From: a virus
DNA length: 64,000 nucleotides
Reading direction: 5' to 3' (one strand)
IMG/VR virus record: IMGVR_UViG_3300025086_000013
Span: 1 to 64,000 of that record
Shown here: in pieces, positions 8,742 through 61,307 of the stretch
How positions within the stretch are numbered: the first letter of the stretch is position 1
How the letters are laid out: each line of letters opens with the position of its first letter
Notes under the pieces: model-generated
Told to the model about the DNA's origin: nothing
Seen by the model: the letters and a program-made list of their open reading frames with translations, nothing else
The model's database searches: none
Translations under genes and position numbers: made by a program

Positions 8742-8861
8742 TTATCTACCTTGACCTCTATAAGGTTTTTTATAAGAATTTTGAGATTTACTAGCATTTT
8801 TGCTATGAACTCCTTTTCTTTTTTTACCACCTACACTTCTAAAAGTAAATGTGTTTTTCAT
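8742..8861 (-). CDS. 39-aa basic peptide ending in YRGQGR (MKNTFTFRSVGGKKRKGVHSKNASKSQNSYKKPYRGQGR), not in ORF track
   Basis: ATG overlaps the TAA of the upstream gene (TAATG); the C-terminal K.YRGQG motif is one I recognise from small basic phage proteins. Confidence 0.75.
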   Translation of the reverse strand: MKNTFTFRSVGGKKRKGVHSKNASKSQNSYKKPYRGQGR

Positions 8862-9613
8862 TAATTAATCTTTCTATATTCTTTATTAATTCTTTTTTGT
8901 ATTCTTTTTGTTTTTCCAGATTTACCCTTTCCTTTTTTAGCATCTTTTTCTTTACTAGCTCTTCTTTTATTAGATAATTTAGTGAGTTTTTTATTCCAGT
9001 TATGGCTTGGTGTATTAACTTCCCTCTTTATATCTGACATGTTATCTCCCTTTCTTTCCCCTTCTGTTTTTTTCTCCCCTGGAGTTTGCTCTCTTCCTGG
9101 TTCACCACCACTTTGATATTTTTTTGCACCACCATCGTTATACATTCCAGGTACTTTCATTCCTTTATGATTAACTGTTTGTGGACCACCAAATTGATAT
9201 TTATTAGATTTATTTGTATTTGGATTAGATCTATTCTTAGTACCAGGATTGTCACCAAAATTTGTTTTATAATCTGATTTATTTGAATCAATCTTATCAG
9301 GAAATACAGCATTAGTTAAACCAGTCAGATCAGAAATTTCTTTTGCAGCAAGTGCAGGAAGAATCCACTTACCCATTCTTTTAATACCGCCCCAAGCTGA
9401 ACTACCTAATTTACTAGCAGCGTCTCTGTTTGTAATTTCATTCTTTTTATTTTTAGAACCTGTTGGTCTACCTCTTTTTTTACCACTAGTAGGATTTTGA
9501 TTACCTGATTTACCAGCATTAGGTTTGCCACCACCTTTACCACCTTTGCCACCTTTACCACCTTTTTTACCTTTGGGGCCACCAGCTTTCATTTTGTATA
9601 GTTCTTTTGCCAT
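8861..9613 (-). CDS. Basic Lys/Gly-rich protein with QxGG motifs (putative virion core/DNA-binding protein)
   Basis: GGK repeats, AT-hook-like KKRGRP, motifs MKAGG, YQFGG, VPGMYNDGG, YQSGG; C-terminus homologous to part of 12232..13047. Confidence 0.75.
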   Translation of the reverse strand: MAKELYKMKAGGPKGKKGGKGGKGGKGGGKPNAGKSGNQNPTSGKKRGRPTGSKNKKNEITNRDAASKLGSSAWGGIKRMGKWILPALAAKEISDLTGLTNAVFPDKIDSNKSDYKTNFGDNPGTKNRSNPNTNKSNKYQFGGPQTVNHKGMKVPGMYNDGGAKKYQSGGEPGREQTPGEKKTEGERKGDNMSDIKREVNTPSHNWNKKLTKLSNKRRASKEKDAKKGKGKSGKTKRIQKRINKEYRKIN

Positions 9614-9615
9614 GA

Positions 9616-10011
9616 TTATTTCTTTTTAAATTTTTCTACGGATCTACCACCAAAGTAGGCTCCTATTACTGTTATTAATACTAATTGTAAAAGATCTGTC
9701 CATTTCTCTTCTACTTCAAATTTAATTGTACCAGCATCAATAAATATTAATAACATAGTACATACTATTAAAAAAATAAGAACCATAGGTCTTACATTTT
9801 TACTTAACCAACTATCAGAATTCATGTCTGCCGTCCAACGGTCAGTTATGTTTTTTTCCATTTGAGCCTCATGACTCAATATAAGTTCTTTTAGCTTTCT
9901 TTTAGCTTCTAGTTTTTCATCTTTTGTTGTTACTAGGTTGTCTATGACCCCACCTACTGATTCTACCAAGTTGCTTCCTGCACTTGAAAAAATCTTTCCT
10001 AGTATTCCCAT
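9616..10011 (-). CDS. Holin, 3-TM (GTA-holin/DUF3154-like)
   Basis: 'RWTADMNSDSWLSKNVRP' + TM + 'VIGAYFGGRS.EK' signature. Confidence 0.85.
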   Translation of the reverse strand: MGILGKIFSSAGSNLVESVGGVIDNLVTTKDEKLEAKRKLKELILSHEAQMEKNITDRWTADMNSDSWLSKNVRPMVLIFLIVCTMLLIFIDAGTIKFEVEEKWTDLLQLVLITVIGAYFGGRSVEKFKKK

Positions 10012-10028
10012 ACTTTTTGTTTTTTAGT

Positions 10029-10463
10029 TTATAAAATCCCGTTGGGCCCACATGCCCCTCCTCTTTTTAATTCACCTCTTGATAAATCAGTTGTTCCATC
10101 TTCATATTCAACCGTGTGTTTTCCCGGTATATCTTGTTTAGCATTAGGTGAATCATAATTAGGAAACTCACCTGAATTTATTCTATTTAACATTTCCTCT
10201 CTAAGAGCAGGATTAGTAATTTGATTTGCTCTATTAGTATTTACATTAGTTAAACTATCTGTAGCTTCATTATATTTTTTAGTTAAATCAATATATCTTG
10301 TCATTCTTTCTTTAGATGAAGTAGGATTATGAATAACAGGAAATCTTTGATCTATGCTACCTTTAGATTGTATTTGTGCATTTTCAATTTCTTCTTTAAG
10401 TTTGGCATCATTATTACCACCTTCTTGAAATCTTTTTTTCATTTGTTTATAAAAACCGTCCAT
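10029..10463 (-). CDS. Hypothetical protein with N-terminal FQEGG and C-terminal GGACGPNGIL tail
   Basis: Shares its terminal decapeptide pattern with 11386..12213 and 12232..13047. Confidence 0.75.
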   Translation of the reverse strand: MDGFYKQMKKRFQEGGNNDAKLKEEIENAQIQSKGSIDQRFPVIHNPTSSKERMTRYIDLTKKYNEATDSLTNVNTNRANQITNPALREEMLNRINSGEFPNYDSPNAKQDIPGKHTVEYEDGTTDLSRGELKRGGACGPNGIL

Positions 10464-10464
10464 A

Positions 10465-11211: not shown

Positions 11212-11213
11212 AT

Positions 11214-11384
11214 CTATTCTATTATTATTACTTTAATTGTATCAGCTTTAATTGTATCTTCATTACAGCAAGATTCTTCAATAATAGGTTTGGCAACATA
11301 ATCAGGATTATATTTATCTCCAGGATTAAATATTCCGCATCCTACAACAATCAATACCCATAAAACTGCTAATTCTCTCATCAT
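11214..11384 (-). CDS. Small putative lipoprotein
   Basis: Likely start MMRELAVLWVLIVVG|C (lipobox-like) directly after the upstream stop at 11386. Confidence 0.6.
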   Translation of the reverse strand: MMRELAVLWVLIVVGCGIFNPGDKYNPDYVAKPIIEESCCNEDTIKADTIKVIIIE

Positions 11385-11385
11385 A

Positions 11386-12213
11386 TTATAAAATTCCATG
11401 TGGTCCCACTGCACCACCACTTTTGTATTTTTTAGAACCTCCGTACTTTTTAATTGTACCTTTTTCTTTTTTCTTTAAAAAAATATCTGCTTGAGTTATT
11501 TGACCGTCTTTATTCATATCAGGAAAACCTCCTCCTTTTTTATACATTTTTTTAGAACCTCCATATTTTTTTGTATGAAAATCAGCCATTTTATCCATTT
11601 GTGGATCAGATGACATTCCATCACTTGGGCCAGCAACCGCATTTTTAATACCTGCTCCTATATTTCTAACGCCTTTGGCACTTTCATCTGCCCAAACACC
11701 TGCTGCTCTAGCTGGAAAACTTCCTTTCATAGCAGATCCAACACCTTCATTTCTAAGTCTACTCATAAAACCTCCTCCTGGTCCTTCAAAACCACTTTGA
11801 GCTTTACGCATTCCTGGAACTTTCATACCTTTTTCAGTATAAATAGGTCCTCCATCTTGTTTTTTATTACCATCTTTCCAATCAGATACTGAATACTTCT
11901 TTTGTCTAATTGGATCTGTTTCTTGTCTATGGTACTTTTTCTGTGGTTCTCTTTTAGAATTAGGATTTAAACCATACTGGTCATTTCTCATTTTAATAGC
12001 ACCCCTAGTTTGATTTCTAACCTGACTACCAGTTCTAGATGTTCCATCAAACCTCATATTTTTAACTCTTGATTCTAATCGCTTTTCCTCAAATGACTTA
12101 TGTTTTTTCTTATTTTTTGGTTTAGATTTACCAAAAATTCTTTTCAAAAGAGATCCACCCTTAGATCCACCTCTTTGATACTTAATTCCAGCTTTTTTCA
12201 TATTTGCAGGCAT
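11386..12213 (-). CDS. Basic protein with QxGG motifs, DxNxDG loop and GGAVGPHGIL tail
   Basis: YQRGG, KQDGG, KVPGM, AQSGFE, duplicated KKYGGSKK, FPDMNKDGQITQAD. Confidence 0.8.
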   Translation of the reverse strand: MPANMKKAGIKYQRGGSKGGSLLKRIFGKSKPKNKKKHKSFEEKRLESRVKNMRFDGTSRTGSQVRNQTRGAIKMRNDQYGLNPNSKREPQKKYHRQETDPIRQKKYSVSDWKDGNKKQDGGPIYTEKGMKVPGMRKAQSGFEGPGGGFMSRLRNEGVGSAMKGSFPARAAGVWADESAKGVRNIGAGIKNAVAGPSDGMSSDPQMDKMADFHTKKYGGSKKMYKKGGGFPDMNKDGQITQADIFLKKKEKGTIKKYGGSKKYKSGGAVGPHGIL

Positions 12214-12231
12214 AACTTTACTTTTTTAAAT

Positions 12232-13047
12232 TTATAATATTCCGTGTGGTCCTTTTGCTCCACCATGTTTAAAATTAAACATGCTTTTAAGACCCCTTGC
12301 AGCTCCACGAGCAGCATTCCCAATTTGATTACCCGCCCACATTCCTGTGTTCTTAGCATAATCTCCTGGTCCATCAAAAGATGCAGGATCAACATATTTT
12401 TTACCATATTCAAAACCCTTTTGAGCTCTTGGTGTAGTTTCAGCCACTTGATCTTTAGGATTTATTTTGTAATACTCCTTATTAATTCTTTTCTGAACTC
12501 TAGACGTATCTTTACCCTTTTCTTTTCTTTTTGTTCTTTTTTTGGTTAACCTATTAAGTTTCTCATTCCAATTAGGTTTATCTTTTTCTATAGCATCCGT
12601 TGTTCTATCAAACGTAAATTTGTTGATATCATCATTTGTTTGATTTTGACCACCATCTTGCATCATACCAGGAACTCTCGTTCCTTTTGCATTATAGACA
12701 GGACCACCAGCTTGCATATGTTTACCTTTTTTATCCTTGAGGTTTCCTTTTATTTCCCAGTTAATATTACTTTCAGGTTTCTTTTTATCCCAAACATTTT
12801 TATATGGATTAGATTTTCTTTTCCACATTTCATTCATATTACTTATATCACTTTTATAATTAGGATTATATTGTTTACCACCTTCTCTTACTTGTCTATT
12901 TACTCTTTTTTCCATGTACTTATCAAGAAGATCTTTATCTTTCTTAGTAAGTCCTCCCGGCTTTCCTTTAGCTTTAGAAAGCTTAAAACCTCTTTTTCCT
13001 TTTGCTCCTCCTTTTTGATACTTATTATTTACGTTTCTTACAGTCAT
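12232..13047 (-). CDS. Basic protein with QxGG motifs and GGAKGPHGIL tail
   Basis: YQKGG, MQAGG, RVPGMMQDGG, AQKGFE, FKHGG. Confidence 0.8.
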   Translation of the reverse strand: MTVRNVNNKYQKGGAKGKRGFKLSKAKGKPGGLTKKDKDLLDKYMEKRVNRQVREGGKQYNPNYKSDISNMNEMWKRKSNPYKNVWDKKKPESNINWEIKGNLKDKKGKHMQAGGPVYNAKGTRVPGMMQDGGQNQTNDDINKFTFDRTTDAIEKDKPNWNEKLNRLTKKRTKRKEKGKDTSRVQKRINKEYYKINPKDQVAETTPRAQKGFEYGKKYVDPASFDGPGDYAKNTGMWAGNQIGNAARGAARGLKSMFNFKHGGAKGPHGIL

Positions 13048-13059
13048 AACTTTTAACTT

Positions 13060-13538: not shown

Positions 13539-13559
13539 ATATTACGGTTTTGGTTATAC

Positions 13560-13576
13560 TATAATATACAAAAAAA
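13560..13576 (-). promoter_or_regulatory. Candidate phage-specific promoter TTTTTTTGTATATTATA
   Basis: Motif recurs intergenically at 17949-17965, 19273-19291 and 54288-54301 on the same strand. Confidence 0.6.
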
Positions 13577-14674: not shown

Positions 14675-14691
14675 CGTAATAAGTATTTTTA

Positions 14692-15063
14692 TTAATACTT
14701 ATCTAATGTCCATGTTCCGTATTCTACTTTTACAGTTCCACTGCTAGCAGTACCTTTTACAGCTCTAGAATCATGAACACAGAAAAAACTCATTTCTCCT
14801 GGTCCAACTTTTAAAGTATTATTACTATCAAACGTTATATCTAACCAAGATGACGCATCTGTATTTTTTATATACATATACATCCCATCACCAGCTCCTG
14901 AACCAGAAGGTGCAGTTGCTATTGTAGTAATAGTTGAAATAGATAATGTACCAGTTTGAATAGCAGGATTCTTTATATGTGCTATTTTAGATGAAGTAAA
15001 ATTTACTCTATCTTTTGCTACACCAGAAGTTGCTAATTGCATTACGGTTGTTAAAGTTGCCAT
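14692..15063 (-). CDS. 'MATLT' paralog 4, putative beta-sandwich virion decoration protein
   Basis: Shares MATLT start, YxYIKNTD, GE-x-x-F and VEYG pattern with 15833-17042 genes. Confidence 0.7.
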   Translation of the reverse strand: MATLTTVMQLATSGVAKDRVNFTSSKIAHIKNPAIQTGTLSISTITTIATAPSGSGAGDGMYMYIKNTDASSWLDITFDSNNTLKVGPGEMSFFCVHDSRAVKGTASSGTVKVEYGTWTLDKY

Positions 15064-15183: not shown

Positions 15184-15549
15184 TTAAAATTTATCTAACA
15201 TTAATTCGTTTATCTCTTTTTGTACTTTTTTAGGAGTTGACTCTGGACAAAGACTAAAAGATATGTCACCTTCAAATCTTTCTATTTCTTCTCCATCATT
15301 AAATACTATAATAGTAGGTAATACAGTTATCTTATTTTTTTTAGCCGCATTAGTATTAAGATCTATTCTATATACCTCTGCTTCTTCTAAATTTTCTAAC
15401 CAAGTACACTCATTTTTAGAATTCCAATCAGCCCAAAACTCTACAACAGTTACACCAACTTGACTATTGTTAAATGTTTTGTCTGTTAAAACTGTTTGAG
15501 CATCTATAGTTGCACCTATCATTAAAAATATTGTTATTAAATATTTCAT
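15184..15549 (-). CDS. Exported thioredoxin-fold protein lacking the CxxC motif
   Basis: Signal peptide; 'VVEFWADWN' where Trx has FWAxWCxxC; 'ITVLPTIIVFNDGEEIERFEG' cis-Pro region. Confidence 0.8.
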   Translation of the reverse strand: MKYLITIFLMIGATIDAQTVLTDKTFNNSQVGVTVVEFWADWNSKNECTWLENLEEAEVYRIDLNTNAAKKNKITVLPTIIVFNDGEEIERFEGDISFSLCPESTPKKVQKEINELMLDKF

Positions 15550-15832: not shown

Positions 15833-16207
15833 CTATGCTGCTGAGAATACACCAACCTCCAATATAGGAGCTCCACTTGCTGAAAATGCTAATACATCTA
15901 CTAAGGTTGTCCAAGGAAACATAGCCCATTCTCCACCTTGTAATATTATTTCTCCACCTACTGCTGCAGATAATTGAATTGTTATTACAATACCACCTTT
16001 AGCTTCTCTATTTCTTAAATAAACAATTGTACCTGTTGCATATTCATCAGCTTCAAGAATTTTTTCTCCTGCTGCTGAATTAGTATCTATAGATCTACTA
16101 GTTACACCTCCAGATACTGCAGTATATGTAAAACTTTTATCTATTGAAATAGGATCAGAAGTTATTCCTGAAACATCTGCTTTTAATTGTGCTGTTAATG
16201 TTGCCAT
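15833..16207 (-). CDS. 'MATLT' paralog 3, putative virion decoration protein
   Basis: MATLTAQ..GGVTS..GTIVYLRN..GEWAMFPW..LEVGVFS. Confidence 0.75.
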   Translation of the reverse strand: MATLTAQLKADVSGITSDPISIDKSFTYTAVSGGVTSRSIDTNSAAGEKILEADEYATGTIVYLRNREAKGGIVITIQLSAAVGGEIILQGGEWAMFPWTTLVDVLAFSASGAPILEVGVFSAA

Positions 16208-16232: not shown

Positions 16233-16610
16233 TTATGATCCAGAAAATACTCCTACTTCTAATGTAGCAGCACTATCTACTAGAGCATGATATACTTTTA
16301 TATCTGTAGCAGCCTTCCAAGGAAATACTGTCCATGTTAAAGGAGCTAAGCTTATATGTGTTGTACCAGCTGTTAACTCTACTTGAATTGTTTCAGTTGA
16401 ACTCATATTTCTTAGATATATTACAGTTCCTTCAGAATAATAAGTTGCCTCTACAATTGTTAAAGCACTACCTGTTGCTCTTGCTGAAGTTAGTGTTTTG
16501 CTTGTAATACCCCCTGCAATAACAGTAGGAGACATTGTTATATCTAATGCAATAGCATCAGCTACTATATCTGATACTGTTAATTTAGTTTGCGCGGTTA
16601 AAGTTGCCAT
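16233..16610 (-). CDS. 'MATLT' paralog 2, putative virion decoration protein
   Basis: MATLTAQ..GGITS..GTVIYLRN..WTVFPW..LEVGVFS. Confidence 0.75.
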   Translation of the reverse strand: MATLTAQTKLTVSDIVADAIALDITMSPTVIAGGITSKTLTSARATGSALTIVEATYYSEGTVIYLRNMSSTETIQVELTAGTTHISLAPLTWTVFPWKAATDIKVYHALVDSAATLEVGVFSGS

Positions 16611-16628: not shown

Positions 16629-17042
16629 TTATTCAAAAATTAACATCCATTCTACTAATGTAGTAGCAGATGAACATTCTACGTTTATATCTGATGCACC
16701 TGACCATGGAATCCATGCCCATTCATTATTATGTAAAAGACCTATTTTACTTTCTGCTCCTATTGTACCAAGAGAAACTGCTACTGTACTAGCTGACGCT
16801 CCAGCTGCATCTGTATTTTTAATATATAATTTACTAGCTTTATTATCTGTATAAGCAGCATTACCTAAAAGTAATGTTACAGTTGAGGCTGCAAAACTTT
16901 TTCTAGCTAGACCGGTAGTTTTGGTCATACCATCTGTAGTTCCTGCATCATATAAAGTTGTTGTCTCATCTATAGCTATTGCAGAACTTGTTAAACTATC
17001 TGCTGCGCTAGTTATCTTTAATTGTGCTGTTGTTACTGCCAT
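16629..17042 (-). CDS. 'MATLT' paralog 1, putative virion decoration protein
   Basis: MAVTTAQL..LYIKNTD..EWAWIPW..VEWMLIF. Confidence 0.75.
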   Translation of the reverse strand: MAVTTAQLKITSAADSLTSSAIAIDETTTLYDAGTTDGMTKTTGLARKSFAASTVTLLLGNAAYTDNKASKLYIKNTDAAGASASTVAVSLGTIGAESKIGLLHNNEWAWIPWSGASDINVECSSATTLVEWMLIFE

Positions 17043-17044: not shown

Positions 17045-17638
17045 CTAATTGTATTTCATTTTAATAAAACCACCTCGTCTTAATGACTCAGCTTTTTCTT
17101 TAATTGCTCTTATATCTCCTGGTGACATCTTTCTATTATTAGGAGGATTCATTTCCATAGGAGTTAGTGGTCTGTTTCTTTCATTAATAACATCAAACGC
17201 TGATCCCCCCATTTGTCTAGGTGTATTTGCATTTGTCATATCTTTTTGTGGTTTTCTACCAGAATTAATAAGTTGTTGCTGTGCAGATTCTGCTGCTTGA
17301 ACTTCCATTTGCTTTTTTAATTCTATATTTTCTCTCATTGCTGCCTCAACAGTATTTATTAATGACTGTTGATCTTTCATGCCTTGCATATAAGTTTGTG
17401 CTTGACTTCTAGCTCTTTCATCTAACATTAGGTTTTGATTACCACCCAACATGCTATCTCTTTGCCAAAGAGCAAAATTATTTTGATCTTTCATAAGATC
17501 TTGTTTTGCTTTTCCTAAAGCATCTTGATTATATTGCTGCCTTGTCATTTTAGACATTTGCTTCTTAGGAGTTTTACCTCCTTCCTGAAACATACCCGGA
17601 ACCTTAGTTCCTTTTCTATTAAATACAGGTCTAGCCAT
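17045..17638 (-). CDS. Hypothetical protein with KVPGMFQEGG, RQMGG and LRRGG motifs
   Basis: N-terminus homologous to the internal PxYxxKGxxVPGM motif of the basic proteins at 8.9-13 kb. Confidence 0.75.
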   Translation of the reverse strand: MARPVFNRKGTKVPGMFQEGGKTPKKQMSKMTRQQYNQDALGKAKQDLMKDQNNFALWQRDSMLGGNQNLMLDERARSQAQTYMQGMKDQQSLINTVEAAMRENIELKKQMEVQAAESAQQQLINSGRKPQKDMTNANTPRQMGGSAFDVINERNRPLTPMEMNPPNNRKMSPGDIRAIKEKAESLRRGGFIKMKYN

Positions 17639-50171: not shown

Positions 50172-53100
50172 TTATATAAATTCTATTTCTGCACCTGCAG
50201 CCATTAATTCTTGTATTGTACTCTCATCTAACTCTATTGTTGTATCAATATCATCATATTGTCTATTTCTTAATTGTTCTGTTCTTCCCCCATCTTGAAA
50301 TTTTAAATTTAAACCTGCTCCAATAAATGGTGATCCTGTATCAACATTGTATCCACCTTTTATACTAACAGGTCCATAACCTGCTTCTAATCCAAGATTA
50401 ATTCCTGAATTGCTATCATATTCTCCATAACCACCAATGTTAGCTCCTGTATATTGTGCATCATTTATCATAATAGGAGAACCAGTATATCCAGCAGATA
50501 ACTTCCCTTTATAGAAAGCTTCTGGACTTATGTTACCTTCTGTAGCATTCATTAAGTTTGTCTGTGCTCCAGCTTCTCCACTTAAGTTTAAACCTAAACC
50601 ACTTCTTCCTGTATAGCCAACATGACTTTTAAGACCACCTTGTAATAAAGCATTATCTAAATCATTTCCTTCAACTCCAACAAAAGCTGAAGCTCCTGAA
50701 TCCACATAAGGATTACCAGCACAACCACCACCCTTACAGCCACCGGCATTTATAAAATTATAATCAGCTTCAAGTCCTCCACCTTGTTGAAATCCTCTAA
50801 ATCCAAAACCTTGAAATAATTGATTATATCCTTGCTTTTGTCTATCTGGATCACTAGATTGAAGGTTATCATCCATTTCTCTAAACTTGTCATCTTTTCT
50901 TAATGTTTCATAGCCTTTATCTATACCCCATTGTACTCCTGGTTCAATAACACCATAATATCCAGCTAACATAGGTAATACTCTACTTCCTACACCACCA
51001 CTAAAACCTTGTAAATTACGTGGATTTCTTAAATATGCTTTTGCCGCATCTTTAGTCCAACCTAATCCTTTAGTAAGATATTGAAAACCTTTATACCAAG
51101 CAGCTCCTTCAACTCCAGCGTTTATAATTGGAATTGGACTTCCACTATCTATTGCATCTGCAATTGCCATACCTGCTTCTTCAACTGCATATGCTGGAAA
51201 TTTAGCAGGGTTGTAACCCCATTCAGCAAAATCTACAATCTCATTAAGAATACCATCCCCAAGTATATTCTCAGTTCCAAATCCAAGTATATTATCTTTA
51301 CTGCTTACACTTACTAAATCTAATAAACCAAAACTTCTATCTCTTAACGCATCTGTGCTTAAAGGAGGTCTAGGATTTAATTTGTTTATAAGACTTCTTC
51401 TTTCATCATCTATATCATCTTGAACATGTGAATAATTCCATTCACCATCTTCACCTTCTCTCCATTTACCTATTTGTTGACAACTGCCATCAGGTAATCT
51501 TATATAACCATTAGGACATAATCCTTGATCTTGTTCTGAATATTCAGGATCTGTAAACATACTAATTACAGGAAGTTGATCCCAATTTCCTATAGGGTCT
51601 GTCATCCAGTCATTTAATTGTGGACTTATATCATAATGACCTTTAACTTTTGTTTCTTCATCTAATAAGTCATAATAATTTTGGCTAAGAGCATAATCTC
51701 CTTCTCCAAGCATCTCTTCTTTGTTAGGTAGAATATTGGTAATTAAATTATTAGATACAACACGTGTGTTGTCCATTTGATTACTATTATCATTATATAT
51801 AGTACCATCTTCTCCTATATTGTATCCAACAATTTTAGACTTAAGTTTTTCATTTTCATATTTTTGTATAACTGCTTTATCTTCTGAAGTATGCTGGTTT
51901 CTTGGATCAAGTGTAGGTAATAATTTAATTCTTTCTTCCATTTCATTTTGTTCCTCTTCTGACATATCCCACCAACCTTCTGGGTATTGTTCTAAATACC
52001 ATTTACTTGCTTCTCCCATTGGATTTTGTTCATATACATATCCAGGAAAATCTGGATTAATTACCAAACCTTCAGTTAATGTATCTCCTGGTAAAGCATT
52101 TAAGTCTGGATAAGCTATATTTAAAGAATCTAAATCTTCTTGACTATGATATTCATAAGGAAAATCTTTCCAATAAACTTCATTTCCATCTTGTATCTCA
52201 TTAGATCCTCCGCCTTGATATATAAATCTATTTAATTCAGTACCAAACTTACCTTGTCTTGATCTAACACGTTTATTTTGAAATCTTCCCCCTGTATTAA
52301 TATCTGTATCTCCTCTATTATCTTCATCACTAGCAGCTACAAATTGATTGTCTGCTAGATTCCATCTTTTCATTCCTTTAAGTCTATCTCTTTCTTTTTT
52401 CTGCTCTAACATTCTATTAAGAGGTTTAGCAATATTAACTATACCTGTAGAAATTTTATCAAATGTTTGTACACCTTTGCTATCCATAAACCTTCTGCCT
52501 TTATTATAAGCATCAGTTGCCCATTGTTCTGTTGTTCTTTTTCCTCCGGGTGTATTATTTACATCTCCATCATTATCAATTGTGTCATCTTCAATATTAT
52601 TATTATTGTTATTGTTGTTGTTATTATTGTTGTTATTATTTCCTGGTCCAGGTTGTATTTGAGGTTCATAATCAAGAGAATGATCAGGATCTCCATAACC
52701 CCAGCCTCCCCAAGCTCCTTGTGTATAATCTCTTTCTTGTAATAAATAAGGTTCTTGTTGATCTGGTGCATTTTGTGTTTGGCTTGTATATAAATTACCT
52801 CCACCTGTTTGATAGTGACTTATAGGTTGTTGAACATCCATTTGACCTCTTGGATTTCTTCTTTTATATTCATAATTTTTAACTCCATACTCATTAAGAT
52901 TTTCAGACCCTATTTGAGCTTTAGGAATAAATCTTCTCAATACATTTTCAGCAGCACCACCTTGTCTTTGTTCTGGAAGATTATAATTACCTTGTTGATC
53001 ATATTCTGAATATGGAACATTATCTGTACCAGTAAACATAGGATTATCTAACTCATCTAAACCTTCATATCTTGCACCACTATATCTAGTACCAAAAACA

Positions 53101-54266
53101 TCAATAAGACCATCTTCATCTTTTACCATTTTGTCTTCTAACCAATAAGGATCATCTTTAAACTCTTGACTACTTGGGTCAATGTCTTTTACTCTAAATC
53201 CCATATAATCTGCATCAGGATTTAAAGCTTCTATTAAATCACCTTTTCCTTGTGTTCCTTCGTCAATATCCCACTCCCCTGTTTCTTCATTATAACTTCT
53301 TTTACCAAATAATGATGGAGCATTCTCATGTCTTTGATCTAATATTTGACCAGTATAGTATTGAGTTTTTTCATCTTCAGTCATTAGATTTCCTGTCTCA
53401 GGATTAACATACATATCTTCATCTGTAGTATTTGTCCATGACTTTCTTTCATAACTTGCTGGATCAGTATCAATATAATTTTCTTTTTTAAAACTATCTA
53501 CTGTACCAGCTACTGCAGCAAATAAATCAAGAAACCCTGTATCACCTACACCAGCAAATCTTGATGTATAAGGCTCTGCACGGGGAACTCCTTTTTTTCT
53601 TTGAGGTCCCTGATACTGTTCATTAGATACATTTTTTGCACTACCAAGACCAGGGTATTTTTGATAAAAATCTTCAGTACCCCATACTTCAGATTGATTT
53701 TGTTCAGAACCATCTTGATATTCAGGTATAAAATCAGTTAAACCTCCATATTGGTATACAGGAGGCATTCCTTCCATCCCTTGAGGAGGAGCAGGTGGCA
53801 TCATTTGTTGAGGTGGTTGTTGCATAGGTTGGGGTATATTTCTTGCTCCTTCTGGAGATTGTGGCTCAACACCAGGTATTGGTGCTTCAATTGCATTAGC
53901 AGTAGCAACGGGCTCTTCTGTTAAAGCTTCTTCAATATATTTTGCTTGTATTGCATAAGAGGCACTATCATCTTCTATGGGACCGCCTTCTTCTACACTA
54001 TCACAAGTCATTCCCGCTTTACATTTAAAATAATTTTTCCAGCAATATCCTACACCTGGTTCTTTGTCATTACAGTTTTGCATTCTTTTAGATACATCAA
54101 AAAGAGCACAACTTTGACAACCACCACCACCATCAGATTCTCTATAATTATTATTTTCTACAGCTGCATTTTCATTAGCTGCTTGTAAATTAGGTATTTC
54201 ACAAGCAGAAGGACAAGCTTTAGCAGCTCCTCCTTTTTGATAACTATATGTTGCTTTATTAGCCAT
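50172..54266 (-). CDS. Modular protein (1364 aa) with about 10 QxGG/QxGxE junction motifs
   Basis: Cys-rich N-module, Pro/Gln-rich linker, poly-Asn, C-terminal Gly-rich beta-strand module, terminal 'IQELMAAGAEIEFI'. Confidence 0.75.
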   Translation of the reverse strand: MANKATYSYQKGGAAKACPSACEIPNLQAANENAAVENNNYRESDGGGGCQSCALFDVSKRMQNCNDKEPGVGYCWKNYFKCKAGMTCDSVEEGGPIEDDSASYAIQAKYIEEALTEEPVATANAIEAPIPGVEPQSPEGARNIPQPMQQPPQQMMPPAPPQGMEGMPPVYQYGGLTDFIPEYQDGSEQNQSEVWGTEDFYQKYPGLGSAKNVSNEQYQGPQRKKGVPRAEPYTSRFAGVGDTGFLDLFAAVAGTVDSFKKENYIDTDPASYERKSWTNTTDEDMYVNPETGNLMTEDEKTQYYTGQILDQRHENAPSLFGKRSYNEETGEWDIDEGTQGKGDLIEALNPDADYMGFRVKDIDPSSQEFKDDPYWLEDKMVKDEDGLIDVFGTRYSGARYEGLDELDNPMFTGTDNVPYSEYDQQGNYNLPEQRQGGAAENVLRRFIPKAQIGSENLNEYGVKNYEYKRRNPRGQMDVQQPISHYQTGGGNLYTSQTQNAPDQQEPYLLQERDYTQGAWGGWGYGDPDHSLDYEPQIQPGPGNNNNNNNNNNNNNNNIEDDTIDNDGDVNNTPGGKRTTEQWATDAYNKGRRFMDSKGVQTFDKISTGIVNIAKPLNRMLEQKKERDRLKGMKRWNLADNQFVAASDEDNRGDTDINTGGRFQNKRVRSRQGKFGTELNRFIYQGGGSNEIQDGNEVYWKDFPYEYHSQEDLDSLNIAYPDLNALPGDTLTEGLVINPDFPGYVYEQNPMGEASKWYLEQYPEGWWDMSEEEQNEMEERIKLLPTLDPRNQHTSEDKAVIQKYENEKLKSKIVGYNIGEDGTIYNDNSNQMDNTRVVSNNLITNILPNKEEMLGEGDYALSQNYYDLLDEETKVKGHYDISPQLNDWMTDPIGNWDQLPVISMFTDPEYSEQDQGLCPNGYIRLPDGSCQQIGKWREGEDGEWNYSHVQDDIDDERRSLINKLNPRPPLSTDALRDRSFGLLDLVSVSSKDNILGFGTENILGDGILNEIVDFAEWGYNPAKFPAYAVEEAGMAIADAIDSGSPIPIINAGVEGAAWYKGFQYLTKGLGWTKDAAKAYLRNPRNLQGFSGGVGSRVLPMLAGYYGVIEPGVQWGIDKGYETLRKDDKFREMDDNLQSSDPDRQKQGYNQLFQGFGFRGFQQGGGLEADYNFINAGGCKGGGCAGNPYVDSGASAFVGVEGNDLDNALLQGGLKSHVGYTGRSGLGLNLSGEAGAQTNLMNATEGNISPEAFYKGKLSAGYTGSPIMINDAQYTGANIGGYGEYDSNSGINLGLEAGYGPVSIKGGYNVDTGSPFIGAGLNLKFQDGGRTEQLRNRQYDDIDTTIELDESTIQELMAAGAEIEFI
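52596..52640 (-). repeat. Mixed AAT/AAC trinucleotide repeat encoding 15 Asn
   Basis: Direct reading of the sequence. Confidence 0.9.
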
Positions 54267-54323: not shown

Positions 54324-57300
54324 TTATAACTTTCTGATATGATCATAAATATGTCTTCCTTTCTTTTTAGCATCTGTATAATATAATCTATTTATTTTAT
54401 CAATATATTTCTTAACTCCTTTTTCATCAGATGTACCATCAAATTTTCCATCTATGTATTCATTGTATATTCTAATTTGTGTATTTAAATCAAAAGCTCC
54501 TCCTGGAATATTTTGTTTTATTGCTCCACCTTTTTTTATTTTTGGAGTTCCAATTCCATATATATTATCTGATCCTATTTTATTTTGTGTTTGATGAACT
54601 TCTGGAGGTTTATTATTATTTCCTGCTCCAGGTTGTAATATATAATTACCAACATCTTTCCAAAATCCTGATGATTCATATTCACCTAGAACATCTACTT
54701 TCCCTGGTTGATTTACATCTGCTATATCTAAACTATAAACATCAATAAGTGGATAATAATTTGAAACTCTTTTTGAATAATTTTCTCTTTCTGGATTCCA
54801 TGTTTGAGCTAAATAGTCTCGTACATAATTTTGATCAGATTTCTGTTCTGCTGTAAAATTATCTGTTCTGCTATTGTATCTATGTGCAATTATTGCTTGA
54901 GTTGCTATTGCGGATTTTTGAGGATCCATAAGATCATGCTGACTTGTTATACCTAACTCATTAAGTAATTCTTTTTCTGTATCATCTAAAGCTACATCCC
55001 ATTTTATTTGTGTCCAACCAACACTATCTCTTGAACTTTTTGCACTCAGTTTTTTCTTATTTCCTTTATAATCTATTTCTATATCACCAATCTGACCCCA
55101 ACTATGATATTTTCTATTAACATCAGGATTTGTATTACCAATACCAGATGCTTTAGATATACCAAGACCCATATTAAGAATCTCAGGATTTATATTACCC
55201 ATACCACTTTCTACACCATATATACCAAAACTAGTTGGTATAAGCATGTCATATATATCACTAGGAATTCCTGAATTTACTTTTACAAGTGCATCTAAAA
55301 TTTGTTTTTTATTATTAACTATTGCATTTAAATAAGGTTCTGTATGTTTTTGAAATTCCATATCTTCATGAGCAGCATAAGAATTATAATCTAAATTGCT
55401 TTCTTGAATTTTATTTTTATCTATAGAAATACTTACAGGATGATACTTTATACTTTCAGCACTTCTCATAATACCCTGACCTTCTCTCCATACTTGATCT
55501 TCTGAATCAAAATACCAACCACCTTGGTTTCTTCCTATTTCTCCAGTTTCTGGATGTTCTGGATTTTCTACTTCTCCTTTAAATGAAAGTTTTCCATCTT
55601 GATAAATAAACGTATTTTGATCTTTAAATTCAGGAAGGACATATACATTAGTTCCTTTTTTTATTGTGCCAAGTAACTCATTTAAATCACCACACTTCAT
55701 ATTAATGCATCCATATGATTGTCTATTATCATCTGTAGCATGAGAATATAATCCTTTTTTTCTTTGTTGTTTTTCTTCCCAATTAACAGTATTAGGTATA
55801 CCATGTAAACTCATTGATATATTTTCACCTTCTCCCATTCTATCATGTGTAAGATTAAAAGATGGAACATCTCTTCTTTGACCTGTTTCGTCCCAATAAC
55901 CTGAATCTGGATCTACATTAGAGATAGTAAATATTCCAGCTCCTGTTTGCATATTACCTGCACTCCAATCATATGTCCATAACTTCTTACCATTTTTCCA
56001 TACTTTATCATCGTCATTTATTATACCATCTTTATTTATATCTAAAGGTTTTGTAACTGTTTGTTGATCACCAGGATTTTCTCCAATTAATATATTATAA
56101 CTTCTTGTTGGATCTTTTTGTCCTGGATAATATAAATGTGTTTTACCAGCTATTTTATCTACAACTAAAAAAGGATCACCAGCAGGCTTCTTAACAATTA
56201 AATTTTGACCTGGATAAAGAGTACTGTCTTCACTTAATCCGTTATCAACTAATAATTGTTTTATGCTTGTTTGATTTTCATTTGCTATTTTTCCTAAGTA
56301 GTCTCCGTCTTGTATTGTATATGATAATTCTTCTACAGTTTCATCTGGTTTATTTTCTCCTTCATAGAATAAAATCTTTTCTACATTTTGTAATTTATTT
56401 ATATCTCTATTATTATTTATTTTTCTATCTATATTTCTCCATGGCCCTACTGCATCTTCATAGTCAGGAGTATTCTTATCACTATATATTGAATCAACTA
56501 ATGTATTTTCTATTTCTATTCTATCATTAGTACTACCATTATTTAAACCATTATTTTCTAAATCTGCTTCTGTAGGTGTCCATGCTTCTCCTTTAAGATT
56601 AGTTCTAAATTTATTTCCTCTATAATCAAATATTTTATTTGGTCCTAAATTTTCTCTAGCTTTTTCAAATGCTTCACTAAATGTTTTAAAATCATCATAA
56701 AGTAATTTTGGTGTTTTTTTATTATTAGATGGTGATTCGTTTTTAAGTTTTACAGAATCATCAATTCTAATATGACTTGGATTAGATTTATATTGTGGAT
56801 TTAATTCAAGAACTTCTTCTAAGGTCATATCATTTGATCTAGCAATTCTTGTTAAATTATCTCCCTTTTTAACTTTATAAACACTTCCTCCATCTTGAAG
56901 TTTTGGTATATCATTATCAATTAGTCCATACTCAAACAATTCATCTTTTACAATTCCTGATACTTTACCTCCTTCTTTATATTTTTTTAATTGTTGTTGA
57001 AGTGTTTTAATTTTTTTATCATTTTTTTCATACTCTCCTCCTGCTTCAAATTGTTTTTCTTTTACATCTTCTTCTGTATAATCTCCTAATAACTTTTCAA
57101 CAATTTCTGGAGGTAAATTATTTAAAATATAATCTTCATAAGAACTTGATTTATCATATTCCTCTATAGATTTTCTAAAATGATTTATATATTGTTCTGG
57201 TGTTTTATTTTGTTGATCAGCATTTTCACCATATAAACTTGGAAATACTTCTGATAAAGACTTTCCATCTCTAACAACATATCCAAGATATTCTCTTGTG

Positions 57301-60300
57301 CCTTGTCTCCCTAAAAAGTTAACTAATGCAGCAAGTTCAGTTTTATTAAATGGCATATTTATTTGACCAGAGTATTCACTGTATACTTCATCTGCTGCTG
57401 CTTTTAAACCTCTTTCACCTTTAAACAAACTTCCATCAAATCTTTTTTTGAATGTATTTTCTTGTGCTTCAAAATCTGCTATAAACTCATCTCTTGATCC
57501 ATCATATAAACTATTGTCTGTTAACTCTGAAAATCTTTGACCATATAATCCACTTGCACTAGATTCTGAATTTTTTAATAATTGTCCATTTGCACTTTCA
57601 ACAGCTATAATACCTGCCTTAAGTTTATTATAATCAACATGATAATCATCTATTCTATCTTGAGGTATTCTTACAGGGTTACCATTTTGGTCAACATTAT
57701 TAGGATCATAGTACATTCTACCATATAATTCAAAAGGTTTACCAACTATTTTTTCTGCTGGTATAGTATAAGAACCATCTTCTCCTTTTTCTCCAAATAA
57801 CCAACCTGCTGAAGCAAATGCTCCTTTCATAGGTATATCAAAATCAAACTGATCATAATAAGAAACATAAGGGAGTTTGCGTTCTTCATCATAACCCTTT
57901 GAAAGTTTATAATTATTCATAGCAAAACCTCCAGAAGAAGAATCTTTTATATATAGATTATCTTCTTGTTTTGAATTTTCAGTTTTTGGTCTTTTCTTTA
58001 AAAACTCATATGATAAAACATCACTCCATATATCATCATCCCAATTAAAAGAAAAATATTTTTTAGCTTTTTTTATTGCACCTTTAATAGTTGGTGAAAA
58101 TTTTGATTCAGATATAGTATTATTTTCTGGTTCAAAACCTAAATATTTATCCCAAAGATCTTGTGAAGATTGTTTAATATATTCAGATTGTTCTGGTGGT
58201 AAATTTAAATTTTCTCCAAAAGTATCCCATGTTTGAGTTTTTCCATCCCATTCAAATGGTAATTTTTCACCAGCAATTAGTTCTTTAAAAGCATGATCTA
58301 TATTATATCCAATTGGAGTTACAGAAGATCTCATACGTTGTGCTAGCATTCCTGGTTCTACTTCTCCTTTTTTCTGAAACCTTACAAGTTCTGCTCCATA
58401 CTTAGCTTTAGGTTTTTCAGATTTTTGTAACATTTTTTGAAGAACCTCATAATTTTTTTGACCATAAGCATTTTTAAATATATCTAAATCTCTAATTAAA
58501 TCTTCACTAGTATAATCTTCTCTTTTAGTAGCATCTAATATTGCTTGTCCTGATGTATTTATTTTTGAAGATTGTTTAGTATTTTGTAATTCTCCCATAA
58601 GTTCTTCAACGGTTTCAGAAATTTTAGGAACGTATCTCCATTGATTTTTTCCAAAATAACCAGAATCATCTTTTACTAGATCATAATGTTCTCTTTGGTA
58701 TTCTGCTCCAGGATCATCTGATTTTAACCAGTCAAGTTCGTTTTGAAATGAATCATGTTTATCAGATTTTAAAAGCCATCCATCTTTTCCTACAGAAGGT
58801 CCATGATATTTATTATCATATGTTTCAGGAATCCAACCTTCTTCTCCCCAATAATCAGATTTTTTACTTTGATTAAAATCTTTTGGTTTACCCATAGCCT
58901 CCCAAAGACCTTCCATATTATAGTTAGGATCTTCTGTTTTAAGATTTTCTGGCAAAGTGTTTACAAAAGAGTTATAATCATCTCTTTCATTTTGCATATC
59001 AGGAGTTAAAACAATTTCTGGAATATCTCCAGTAAGAGGTGGTGAACCATAAGAAGCACCTGCTGGTTTAGGAACAAATCTAGATCTTTGAGGTAATTGT
59101 GTTTTTGGATTAGTTGGCATACCATCTATAGTTACCGGATCTAAAGTTATTGTTTGAGAATCTCTCCAATATCTAAAATCAGGATTACTTATATAATCTA
59201 GTAAATCATCATGTTTATGATTAAATCCTTCATCTCTAAAAGCTTGTTTTAATCTTCCAGGATTTTGAAACCACTTCATATCTTTTTGTGAAACTGCAAA
59301 TCTAATACCTCCTCTATCATTTACAATATCTATTTCACCAGTTCTAGGATCTAAACGTAAATGGTCCTTTCCTATTAAATTGTATTTTTGTTTTATATCA
59401 CCAGGAAGCATGTATAAGTCTTCATCTCTAAGTGTATAACTTAAAGGAGTTTTATCACCATAATAATTCCAACCACTCCATGTTTTACCTTGTTTGTTAA
59501 CTCTTAAATCTCTTTGATAACCTTGTTGATACCATTCTTCACGTCCATATTCTTTTCTTTCTTCTGGTGTTAAATCAAACCAACTACTATATTGACTTAT
59601 GGAGCCTTTACCTTTTTTCTTTAAATCTGTTACATATTCTGGATTAAGATTAGCAAGCCCTGATTGATCATTTCCACGTGCATAAGTTCTCCATCCACTA
59701 TTACCTTTGTATTCAAGAGTGTATGTTTTCTTACCTCTATCATTAATATTTTCTCTAACCCTCATGTTTCCTGTAGTGTTATGGACTAAACTTGGCCAAG
59801 CTTGTTGAGAATGTTTTTTTGTATCTTTAAATAATGATTTACCTCTATAGCTTAAAAAATTATCTAATTCGTGTCTTTCTATATCAAAGTATCTTCTTTT
59901 ATATTTTTTATCTTTATAATCATATTCTTCATAATCTGTCCAATCATTTGCAGGAACATATTTTTTTTCATTAGCTCCATACTTTTTAATTTCCCACTCT
60001 TCTTTTTCATCATCATCCTCTCCTCCTTTCTGATATATGTTTAAATCTAATAATGGTTTTCCTGTATTAAGTTTTTCTTGTACTATATTTTTCATAAAAG
60101 GTGCAAAGGGTCCTCTATTGTCTGGCATATTTTCATATTTGTTTAACCATTCTTTTAATTCAGGTTTACTATATTCATCAATTCTTCTTTGAAATAATCC
60201 TAAATCAGATTTTGTTGGAATGTTATCTAATTGATGAGCTTGTGGAGACCATGCGCCTGACCATACATCATCAAATTTTCTTCTAGAGTGTAATCCAAAT

Positions 60301-61307
60301 TCTGGTGATTCTTGATGAGAATAAGGAGAAGATGCTGAACTACTTACACCTCTTAAACCATCTTGTCTATATGGATTATATTTTTCCCAACCTAAATAAT
60401 ACTTACGGTCATTCATATTAATAGGATCTAATTTTAACGAATTAATATATTGATTATGAATTTTTCCATTTTCTAATTTAAGTTGTTTATATTCTGTCAT
60501 TAAAGCATCTCTTTCAGATTTAGAAATATTTTTATCAAATATTTTCATTCTAAGATTTTTAATTTTAGATGCATATTGCATACTTTCTTTACTTAATATA
60601 ACATCATATTTTGAATCTTTTAATCTGTTATACAGTTGATAATCTCCTGTAAAAATTTTTGTTTCATTTGGATATTTAAATTGACCATAAAAATATGTAT
60701 CATTTAATGAATTAGATCTAAGATTACCTGGATTAAGTTTCATAGCTCCATCCATTGGAAGATGTATAGTAGTTAGTGCATCATCCCAATTTCCTACATG
60801 ATGATTTATAACTGAACTTCCACTTCCAGAAAAATGTGTAGTACGTGCATTATTAATCAAGTTTCCATTTTGATCAAAATCTATATATCTTCCTTTATCT
60901 CGTCTTATTAAATTGCCTTCAAAAGGTTTTGTTTCATCTATAAAGTCAAATCTATTTCTTGAAATATTACCAGGCCCTTGCACATTAGATGTTGGATTTT
61001 GTTGCCCAGATGTTCCATAATTAGTAGTGTTTGGCTTTGGTTTTGGATTCCACCAATCTTTTATTTTAGAAATAATACCTTTTTTCTTTTTAGATCCTCC
61101 TCCTTGCATTAAAGGTACTTCAAATACTTCATTACCAGGAAATATATAATCAGCACCAGGCATCATAATTTGACTATTACCAAGGTTATCAGTTCCTCTT
61201 ACAGGAAAGTCTACACCTTTCATAGTTATATTACCTGATGGTATTATATTATAGGGATTGTTTTTATCCTTGCTATTTCTTTTATATCCGTTTTTACTAT
61301 ATTTCAT
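54324..61307 (-). CDS. Modular virion-associated peptidoglycan-active protein (2327 aa): 2x LysM, YkuD L,D-transpeptidase-like, two lysozyme/SLT-like modules
   Basis: LysM 'YKVKKGDNLTRIA..LNP' and 'YTIQDGDYLGKIA..LYPGQNLIV'; YkuD 'SLHG...SYGCINM'; SLT-like 'IIAVES...SASGLYG' and 'GVESGMG...SVGWTQI...DP..SA.AT'. Confidence 0.8.
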   Translation of the reverse strand: MKYSKNGYKRNSKDKNNPYNIIPSGNITMKGVDFPVRGTDNLGNSQIMMPGADYIFPGNEVFEVPLMQGGGSKKKKGIISKIKDWWNPKPKPNTTNYGTSGQQNPTSNVQGPGNISRNRFDFIDETKPFEGNLIRRDKGRYIDFDQNGNLINNARTTHFSGSGSSVINHHVGNWDDALTTIHLPMDGAMKLNPGNLRSNSLNDTYFYGQFKYPNETKIFTGDYQLYNRLKDSKYDVILSKESMQYASKIKNLRMKIFDKNISKSERDALMTEYKQLKLENGKIHNQYINSLKLDPINMNDRKYYLGWEKYNPYRQDGLRGVSSSASSPYSHQESPEFGLHSRRKFDDVWSGAWSPQAHQLDNIPTKSDLGLFQRRIDEYSKPELKEWLNKYENMPDNRGPFAPFMKNIVQEKLNTGKPLLDLNIYQKGGEDDDEKEEWEIKKYGANEKKYVPANDWTDYEEYDYKDKKYKRRYFDIERHELDNFLSYRGKSLFKDTKKHSQQAWPSLVHNTTGNMRVRENINDRGKKTYTLEYKGNSGWRTYARGNDQSGLANLNPEYVTDLKKKGKGSISQYSSWFDLTPEERKEYGREEWYQQGYQRDLRVNKQGKTWSGWNYYGDKTPLSYTLRDEDLYMLPGDIKQKYNLIGKDHLRLDPRTGEIDIVNDRGGIRFAVSQKDMKWFQNPGRLKQAFRDEGFNHKHDDLLDYISNPDFRYWRDSQTITLDPVTIDGMPTNPKTQLPQRSRFVPKPAGASYGSPPLTGDIPEIVLTPDMQNERDDYNSFVNTLPENLKTEDPNYNMEGLWEAMGKPKDFNQSKKSDYWGEEGWIPETYDNKYHGPSVGKDGWLLKSDKHDSFQNELDWLKSDDPGAEYQREHYDLVKDDSGYFGKNQWRYVPKISETVEELMGELQNTKQSSKINTSGQAILDATKREDYTSEDLIRDLDIFKNAYGQKNYEVLQKMLQKSEKPKAKYGAELVRFQKKGEVEPGMLAQRMRSSVTPIGYNIDHAFKELIAGEKLPFEWDGKTQTWDTFGENLNLPPEQSEYIKQSSQDLWDKYLGFEPENNTISESKFSPTIKGAIKKAKKYFSFNWDDDIWSDVLSYEFLKKRPKTENSKQEDNLYIKDSSSGGFAMNNYKLSKGYDEERKLPYVSYYDQFDFDIPMKGAFASAGWLFGEKGEDGSYTIPAEKIVGKPFELYGRMYYDPNNVDQNGNPVRIPQDRIDDYHVDYNKLKAGIIAVESANGQLLKNSESSASGLYGQRFSELTDNSLYDGSRDEFIADFEAQENTFKKRFDGSLFKGERGLKAAADEVYSEYSGQINMPFNKTELAALVNFLGRQGTREYLGYVVRDGKSLSEVFPSLYGENADQQNKTPEQYINHFRKSIEEYDKSSSYEDYILNNLPPEIVEKLLGDYTEEDVKEKQFEAGGEYEKNDKKIKTLQQQLKKYKEGGKVSGIVKDELFEYGLIDNDIPKLQDGGSVYKVKKGDNLTRIARSNDMTLEEVLELNPQYKSNPSHIRIDDSVKLKNESPSNNKKTPKLLYDDFKTFSEAFEKARENLGPNKIFDYRGNKFRTNLKGEAWTPTEADLENNGLNNGSTNDRIEIENTLVDSIYSDKNTPDYEDAVGPWRNIDRKINNNRDINKLQNVEKILFYEGENKPDETVEELSYTIQDGDYLGKIANENQTSIKQLLVDNGLSEDSTLYPGQNLIVKKPAGDPFLVVDKIAGKTHLYYPGQKDPTRSYNILIGENPGDQQTVTKPLDINKDGIINDDDKVWKNGKKLWTYDWSAGNMQTGAGIFTISNVDPDSGYWDETGQRRDVPSFNLTHDRMGEGENISMSLHGIPNTVNWEEKQQRKKGLYSHATDDNRQSYGCINMKCGDLNELLGTIKKGTNVYVLPEFKDQNTFIYQDGKLSFKGEVENPEHPETGEIGRNQGGWYFDSEDQVWREGQGIMRSAESIKYHPVSISIDKNKIQESNLDYNSYAAHEDMEFQKHTEPYLNAIVNNKKQILDALVKVNSGIPSDIYDMLIPTSFGIYGVESGMGNINPEILNMGLGISKASGIGNTNPDVNRKYHSWGQIGDIEIDYKGNKKKLSAKSSRDSVGWTQIKWDVALDDTEKELLNELGITSQHDLMDPQKSAIATQAIIAHRYNSRTDNFTAEQKSDQNYVRDYLAQTWNPERENYSKRVSNYYPLIDVYSLDIADVNQPGKVDVLGEYESSGFWKDVGNYILQPGAGNNNKPPEVHQTQNKIGSDNIYGIGTPKIKKGGAIKQNIPGGAFDLNTQIRIYNEYIDGKFDGTSDEKGVKKYIDKINRLYYTDAKKKGRHIYDHIRKL

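Follow-up and report, generated by a model that had tools for sequence, protein, structure and literature searches.

A short Gly-Gly peptide as a candidate end mark of exchangeable modules in late proteins of a marine crAss-like phage

Eight late proteins encoded by the IMG/VR virus record IMGVR_UViG_3300025086_000013 carry many copies of one short peptide (an aromatic or hydrophobic residue, Gln or Lys, any residue, and then Gly-Gly), and the question raised by this locus is whether the peptide is a place at which these proteins are cut, a handle by which they are recognized, or a seam at which their parts were joined. The window, meaning the whole stretch of DNA analyzed, is the first 64 kb (64,000 nucleotides) of one 94,934-bp contig with approximately 30% G+C, which has 58 open reading frames (ORFs) genome-wide. 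The initial annotation, made from the window alone, had proposed a maturation-protease site or a docking tag for loading modules into the head, and every motif copy that it listed was found in the ORF to which it had been ascribed. The motif is real, specific, and conserved, and full-text searches of the published literature found no description of it. Tentatively, and ahead of the alternatives weighed below, we read it as an uncut recognition handle plus hinge at the ends of exchangeable modules. The eight proteins are as follows (aa, amino acids).

54324 to 61307, minus strand: a multi-domain protein of 2327 aa, whose gene comes immediately after that of the muzzle, with motifs at aa 67, 425, 1420, 1443, 1470, and 2257 and a G-x-E variant at aa 968.
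50172 to 54266, minus strand: a 1364-aa modular protein with motifs at aa 9, 91, 171, 485, 683, 1159, and 1323 and G-x-E variants at aa 183, 450, and 691.
47279 to 50170, minus strand: a 963-aa protein with motifs at aa 24, 298, and 400 and variants at aa 236 and 423; orthologues occur in five related IMG/VR genomes.
17045 to 17638, minus strand: a 197-aa protein that opens with a long cassette (see below), with motifs at aa 17, 141, and 186.
12232 to 13047, minus strand: a 271-aa basic protein (24% Lys plus Arg, no Cys) with motifs at aa 10, 53, 111, 129, and 259 and a variant at aa 208.
11386 to 12213, minus strand: a 275-aa basic protein with motifs at aa 12, 118, 224, and 263 and KKYGG at aa 215 and 255.
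10029 to 10463, minus strand: a 144-aa protein adjoining a holin gene, with motifs at aa 12 and 132.
8861 to 9613, minus strand: a 250-aa basic Gly/Lys-rich protein with motifs at aa 8, 139, 158, and 166.

Enrichment was assessed over the 58 ORFs against 2000 rounds of shuffling within each protein, which keeps the composition. The pattern as first annotated was observed 41 times where 8.8 copies were expected, [YFMLAIV][QK]xGG 33 times against 6.9, and [YFM]QxGG 18 times against 0.77, and none of the 2000 shuffles reached the observed genome-wide counts. The earlier impression that the motif is largely limited to eight ORFs was likewise sustained: those eight had 17 copies of [YFM]QxGG where 0.29 were expected, and the remaining 50 had a single copy, with 0.47 expected. 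In the eight ORFs the G-x-E variant was modestly enriched (8 copies, 1.35 expected); the remaining ORFs had 5 copies where 4.5 were expected. Approximately seven of the copies are parts of two longer cassettes that the proteins share, and these copies are therefore not independent. It is hardly conceivable that these counts are an artefact of chance or composition in Gly-, Lys-, and Gln-rich low-complexity proteins. The small proteins do consist of 11 to 16% Gly and 23 to 25% Lys plus Arg, but shuffles that preserved this composition never matched the observed counts and thereby refute the explanation, the reversed motif showed no enrichment, and the motif is kept in relatives.

The position-specific signal is confined to the N-terminal side of the Gly-Gly pair, with Y, F, M, or L at -3, Q or K at -2, and K at -4 and -5. 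The residue that follows is unconstrained; Pro occupies it at 9% of sites, and Trp, Phe, and charged residues are all seen there too. The Gly codons of the motif are a mixture of GGT and GGA at the usual frequencies of the genome, and this variation indicates that conservation acts at the protein level; a DNA repeat or Shine-Dalgarno-like signal was rejected on the same ground. As had been pointed out before, the first copy tends to lie close to the N terminus: seven proteins have it at aa 8, 12, 12, 10, 17, 24, and 9, and only the 2327-aa protein has it later, at aa 67. Under uniform placement, the seven per-protein chances multiply to approximately 3e-5. Seven of the eight proteins open, then, with a short leader closed by the motif, which also stands ahead of conserved terminal tags, and copies can lie 3 to 27 aa apart.

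The nature of the virus is indicated by four sets of Pfam matches.

84652 to 86286: major capsid protein (Crass_capsid, 2e-31).
87742 to 90513: portal protein, P22-like.
69981 to 71563: crAss ring proteins 1 and 2 (CrAss_Ring_1 and CrAss_Ring_2).
61307 to 69970, minus strand: muzzle protein of 2887 aa (crAss_MUZ).

Because of these matches, we assign the genome to a divergent crAss-like phage with a Crassvirales-type virion module; the Crass-type capsid protein, the two ring proteins, and the muzzle protein occur in the conserved order. The nearest phage capsid protein in GenBank is only 29% identical. Relatives of the capsid protein are encoded in more than 599 IMG/VR contigs, the best 80 of which are at least 78% identical, and the close relatives come from Tara Oceans and other metagenome assemblies deposited in ENA. 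After the muzzle gene, the minus strand encodes proteins of 2327, 1364, 963, 1142, 5442, and 1917 aa, in that order. In Bacteroides phage crAss001, the cargo proteins C1 (gp45) and C2 (gp46) directly follow the muzzle gene and precede the polymerase-associated giants, and they are largely unstructured and packed in the capsid and tail for ejection (Bayfield et al. 2023, PMC10172136). The ORFs starting at 54324, 50172, and 47279, which lie between the muzzle ORF and the 1142-, 5442-, and 1917-aa ORFs, have the same position as those cargo genes, and the three large motif-bearing proteins thus occupy the injected-cargo position of a crAss-like phage. Searches with gp45 and gp46 (phmmer) against all proteins of this genome gave nothing better than E 0.35 to the cargo-position or small basic proteins, and there was no match to a Pfam cargo family.

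The initial annotation had proposed checking whether modules between motifs are swapped among related genomes, and such swaps were found. Homologues of the 1364-aa protein in relatives (P0004 to P0016) share modules in rearranged order and carry the motif at orthologous places, where the middle residue varies; one site reads YQYGG, FQYGG, YKHGG, or FQEGG and another YQGGG, HQQGG, YQNGG, or YQDGG. In the alignments, conservation runs up to the Gly-Gly pair and is followed by indels or by entirely different modules, which assigns the motif to the upstream module, as part of its C-terminal end. Internal BLAST breakpoints fell within 8 aa of a motif in 10 of 35 cases, against approximately 2.2 expected. 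In relative P0003, the module that opens the 271-aa protein, its leader and YQKGG included, is found midway along a longer protein. Alignments and breakpoints together uphold the motif as a junction or terminal mark of modules in late proteins. In scans of IMG/VR, the 1364-aa protein and P0003 retrieved no relative, and blastn and tblastn searches of the small-protein region and of the 963-aa ORF against a phage collection gave no match.

These same observations are those expected of a passive module cap and recombination seam, that is, a terminal strand followed by a Gly-Gly turn, inherited with its module and read by no protein, which would persist since joints made there keep both neighbors foldable. 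Besides the breakpoints that fall on the motif and its attachment to the upstream module, such a seam would explain the hydrophobic residues ahead of the motif, as in a final strand, a motif abundance that tracks the modules carried, and flavors that drift among close relatives. We nevertheless think it improbable. Unrelated modules, leaders, and small basic proteins share Gln or Lys at -2 and an aromatic residue at -3, neither of which a mere turn needs, and the codons differ, so that there is no DNA homology to guide recombination. Moreover, aligned orthologues retain the Gly-Gly of the motif at 68% of sites, against 49% for the remaining Gly-Gly pairs of the same proteins.

The large cargo-position proteins allow the motif to be placed against domains. 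Both the 2327-aa and 1364-aa ORFs combine several unrelated effector domains in a single polypeptide. The former contains two LysM domains and a YkuD domain (Pfam), with PHROGs endolysin/transglycosylase matches at aa 1475 to 1709; the latter contains a Cys-rich domain and a barrel-like cassette and, like the 963-aa protein, matched no Pfam or PHROGs family. A search of the 963-aa protein against sequences of solved structures gave nothing useful. Three elements stand out.

50301 to 50777, minus strand: a mobile beta-barrel-like cassette, aa 1164 to 1322 of the 1364-aa protein, with FQQGG and FQDGG on either side.
50175 to 50285, minus strand: the C-terminal tail of the 1364-aa protein, after the last Gly-Gly pair, ending in the helix tag L-M-A-A-G-A-E-I-E-F-I.
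50087 to 50170, minus strand: the conserved N-terminal element of the 963-aa protein, aa 1 to 28, closing in MQHGG.

The claim that internal copies fall at domain boundaries held in part. LQDGG (aa 1470 to 1474) does stand directly ahead of the first LysM match, which starts at aa 1475 to 1478, and FQQGG and FQDGG do bracket the beta module; the second LysM and the YkuD domain have no motif at their boundary. Copies of the Gly-rich cassette of approximately 160 aa, 72 to 78% identical, occur at differing positions in the otherwise rearranged P0004, P0005, P0006, P0009, P0010, and P0013. AlphaFold2 predicted a beta meander at aa 1165 to 1319 (predicted local distance difference test [pLDDT], 64 to 81), with both flanking motifs in low-confidence linkers at its edges. 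Its Foldseek matches were weak (E 0.03 to 0.5) and all were membrane beta-barrels. The predicted meander has approximately 10 strands, and the last one ends in an aromatic residue, like the signal of outer-membrane barrels. For aa 1 to 700 of the same protein, AlphaFold2 run with 8 sequences gave a mean pLDDT of 29.6 and no structural mapping of the motifs there. The tail, with a helix of the form L-[IM]-A-A-G-A-x-[IL]-E-x-[ILV], ends 11 of the 13 homologues (P0004, P0006 to P0013, and others) as well as the proteins of relatives at the same position, and the helix was predicted by AlphaFold2 at aa 1348 to 1356. The N-terminal element of the 963-aa protein, conserved over approximately 23 aa, is closed by a motif of the M-Q-x-G-G type in the orthologues (MQMGG, MRDGG, MQQGG, or YQDGG). 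A run of approximately 17 Asn residues (52590 to 52646, minus strand; approximately aa 541 to 559 of the 1364-aa protein) is replaced by a Cys-Pro-rich segment in relatives.

The five small proteins, none of which has a family in PHROGs or Pfam, share two further elements.

12649 to 12708, minus strand: a long cassette, G-G-P-V-Y-N-x-K-G-T-R-V-P-G-M-x-Q-D-G-G, with more copies at 9128 to 9187, 11806 to 11853, and 17576 to 17635.
12235 to 12264, minus strand: a C-terminal tag, G-G-A-x-G-P-[HN]-G-I-L, with more copies at 11389 to 11418 and 10032 to 10061.

The 20-aa cassette is common to four of the small basic proteins and both begins after and closes with a Gly-Gly pair. The only proteins that a profile search found to carry it are small basic ones, those of this phage and of relatives P0002, P0003, P0017, P0021, P0023, P0026, P0027, and P0028. 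The tag closes three small proteins of this genome, P0003, and two small proteins of another relative. Alignment of the 271-aa protein with P0002 and P0003 delimits a module bounded by YQKGG and by MQAGG or LRSGG. That the small basic proteins are in the virion is our assumption. In the 275-aa protein, an EF-hand/dockerin-like calcium-loop pattern, D-x-N-x-D-G-x-I, directly follows YKKGG (11478 to 11546, minus strand; aa 223 to 245), with a Pfam Dockerin_1 match of only E 0.13. What is new from this genome is the very rich [YF]-Q-x-G-G flavor of the motif, the five small basic proteins with their cassette and tag, and internal proteins that are nearly free of Cys.

A further question is whether the joints are cut. 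A maturation protease could divide the large proteins, as polyproteins, after or within the Gly-Gly pair into free modules, and the leaders and tail tags would then be targeting peptides removed after packaging or ejection, as in the T4 capsid-targeting sequences or phiKZ head proteins. Conservation at P5, P4, P2, and P1 with a free P' side resembles a protease specificity, and leaders of 8 to 24 aa in seven proteins, a module order permuted among relatives, as expected of separately acting modules, and a conserved peptide between two motifs all agree with such cutting. The cutter could be a host protease, an unrecognized enzyme, or a zincin-like domain within the 5442-aa cargo protein.

37182 to 37196, minus strand: HEAFH zincin-like motif (Y-H-E-A-F-H), aa 2197 of the 5442-aa ORF (27456 to 43784).

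This HExxH domain, kept in a presumed capsid-internal protein, is the sole metalloprotease-like site among such proteins. Zincin peptidases have been predicted to process the polyvalent proteins of phages (PMC5512222), and by that analogy HEAFH is a possible processing enzyme. Its region, however, matched no Pfam peptidase family and gave nothing useful in the search against solved structures. It is kept in relatives and equally in crAss001 gp47 (aa 2157), and crAss001 has none of these motifs, so its occurrence does not track the motif. The same 5442-aa ORF has a Pfam DUF7831 match near aa 4815 to 4930. The only other HExxH site is in a muzzle insert (62567 to 63151, minus strand), a reprolysin-like (M12B) metalloprotease domain with the motif HEIGH (Pfam Reprolysin_5, 1.7e-14). 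As a cutter it was set aside because some relatives retain the motif but lack this domain; the muzzle proteins of three complete relatives have no HExxH.

The search for a CE-clan, C39-like, or prohead protease that the initial annotation had called for was unsuccessful. None was found in Pfam and PHROGs scans of approximately 50 of the 58 ORFs, and a scan of all ORFs for the catalytic motif Q-x5-C returned just three instances, all of them outside the capsid-internal and cargo proteins. Between the portal and capsid genes lies a highly charged, scaffold-like ORF of 435 aa, which has no Cys and one His and gave no family match and nothing useful against solved structures. The presumed capsid-internal and cargo proteins have 0 to 2 cysteines each, including 1 in 5442 aa, 0 in the capsid protein, and 0 in the small basic proteins, whereas the muzzle protein has 60. 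Cys-rich tail and muzzle proteins next to nearly Cys-free internal ones would fit a disulfide-stabilized tail, as in crAss001. An adenovirus-protease-like site, of the kind cited as a precedent in the initial annotation, did not fit the counts, since the hydrophobic residue is at P5 and not P4; in the P4 register ([YFMLIV]xGG) there were 10 copies against 13.7 expected in the eight ORFs. Zincin specificity usually rests on P1', and a conserved Pro directly after Gly-Gly, seen in the long cassette and past the Cys-rich domain, is awkward for most endopeptidases. The Pro, Trp, Phe, and charged residues seen there suit neither cysteine Gly-Gly proteases nor zincins.

An experimental comparison comes from crAss001 (NC_049977.1). 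Its gp45 (locus 21988 to 24516) has four copies of A-[FY]-G-G against 0.1 expected, at aa 207 to 210, 330 to 333, 425 to 428, and 560 to 563, a pattern that was picked after viewing the sequence and whose flavor differs from the QxGG motif; its virion proteins contain zero copies of [YFMLIV][QKR]xGG. Two stretches of gp45 have been resolved by cryo-electron microscopy, aa 214 to 245 and the portal-bound aa 425 to 552 (PMC10172136). Each begins at or just past an A-[FY]-G-G copy, and the second ends ten residues ahead of the next. The copy at aa 425 to 428 lies inside a stretch resolved as a continuous chain, so that this joint is intact in the virion, which argues against cleavage. The separate tail and capsid locations of the two stretches could equally mean separate fragments. 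On balance we consider it possible but rather doubtful that the Gly-Gly peptides are cleavage sites and that this lineage has true polyproteins, which would be cut up, inside the capsid or during ejection, into dozens of separate parts.

We return, then, to an uncut handle plus hinge, which we prefer to cleavage and, further behind, to the passive seam. In this mechanism the aromatic-Gln/Lys part would serve as a short handle that a single shared partner recognizes while particles assemble or eject, and the Gly-Gly pair would be a hinge that allows adjoining modules to fold, to unfold, and to pass through the tail each on its own, with the joint left uncut in the virion. In its favor are the gp45 structure, the lack of any Gly-Gly-type protease match in the ORFs scanned, the nearly Cys-free internal proteins, the occurrence of Pro after Gly-Gly, and copies 3 to 27 aa apart, as well as an enrichment confined to eight late ORFs, a signal at the protein level and only N-terminal of the Gly-Gly, the alignments, breakpoints, and Gly-Gly retention described above, and the gene position shared with C1 and C2. 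In the same tentative spirit, the motif may be described as a conserved terminal piece of exchangeable modules, found both in a small basic family and in the proteins that serve as cargo or for ejection in a marine crAss-like lineage.

Several points weigh against this. No binding partner for the handle was identified. The motif is missing from the putative virion RNA polymerase (vRNAP)-type cargo proteins, which means that it does not tag cargo for loading in general and argues against the earlier idea of a general cargo address. In complete relatives with approximately 80% capsid identity, strict copies are far fewer (9 against 7.7; 10 against 6.4) and other flavors occur, such as G-G-E-L-P-K, which implies that the handle can be dispensed with in this form. 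The one-sided conservation, the short N-terminal leaders, and a conserved 13-aa peptide between two motifs fit a protease site as well. The crAss001 joint has another sequence flavor, and its likeness is by analogy to a pattern chosen with the sequence in view. Finally, the presence of all eight proteins in the virion is inferred from gene position or strand only.

Other genes near these loci are noted for completeness. The holin gene that adjoins the 144-aa motif protein lies at 9616 to 10011 (PHROGs). A thioredoxin-like protein with a signal-like N-terminal segment (15184 to 15549, minus strand; Pfam Thioredoxin, 3.7e-6) is encoded among the late genes, as are, on the minus strand, four paralogues of approximately 125 aa (14692 to 15063, 15833 to 16207, 16233 to 16610, and 16629 to 17042) that start with M-A-T-L-T or M-A-V-T-T and have no family match. 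Beyond the window, a 100-aa ORF that appears GroES-like by eye (92802 to 93104, minus strand) adjoins the terminase gene.

Few viruses are as abundant as the crAss-like phages, and the way in which they package and eject several megadaltons of protein is an unsolved problem. Here, one short peptide marks module ends in the proteins at the cargo position of a widespread marine lineage. The peptide allows module boundaries to be predicted in proteins that lack any database annotation and accounts for their evolution by module exchange. Were cleavage true after all, it would release enzymes that act on the cell wall, a barrel of the outer-membrane type, small basic peptides, and the targeting tags. 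Tailed phages would then have polyprotein processing with a new specificity, one not yet described for phages, and the single-chain threading model of the crAss001 cargo protein C1 would be revised.

Among known systems, the closest comparison is with crAss001 C1 and C2, which share the gene position between the muzzle and vRNAP-type genes and, in gp45, an enriched Gly-Gly joint; the proteins here are far larger and have cell-wall enzyme domains and a barrel cassette. The T4 capsid-targeting sequences are cut by gp21, and the phiKZ head and inner-body proteins are cut by gp175 at S/A/G-x-E. The likeness lies in short N-terminal leaders on small basic internal proteins and in many paralogous head proteins with one short motif. 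In T4 and phiKZ, however, Glu is the last motif residue and the phage encodes a prohead serine protease, whereas the motif here ends in Gly-Gly, the G-x-E form is minor (8 copies), and no prohead protease match was found close to the genes for portal and capsid. Adenovirus protease sites, (M/I/L)-x-G-G|x, the sites of African swine fever virus pS273R, and C39 double-glycine leaders also have a hydrophobic residue ahead of Gly-Gly, in core or basic virion proteins, but here that residue is at P5 rather than P4, no cysteine protease was found, and the internal proteins are nearly Cys-free. The CdiA proteins of polymorphic toxins have a VENN junction motif, and MARTX toxins have inter-effector linkers that are also cut; in both, as here, one short conserved peptide marks exchange points of variable modules. 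Those are bacterial secreted toxins with other motifs, and their exchange proceeds partly via DNA homology, which is absent here. Polyvalent proteins are giant, multi-domain proteins delivered together with DNA, with a mosaic domain order, peptidoglycan-acting domains, and a zincin-like domain proposed as their processor (Iyer et al. 2017, PMC5512222). No match to the Pfam polyvalent-protein peptidase family was found here, and an LPD1 lead from a protein atlas was weak (score 0.90). The proteins described here resemble polyvalent proteins in being giant and multi-domain, in their mosaic order, and in having peptidoglycan-acting domains, and differ from the account in PMC5512222, which describes no shared junction peptide, in having one; the zincin-like HEAFH motif lies in the adjacent 5442-aa ORF.

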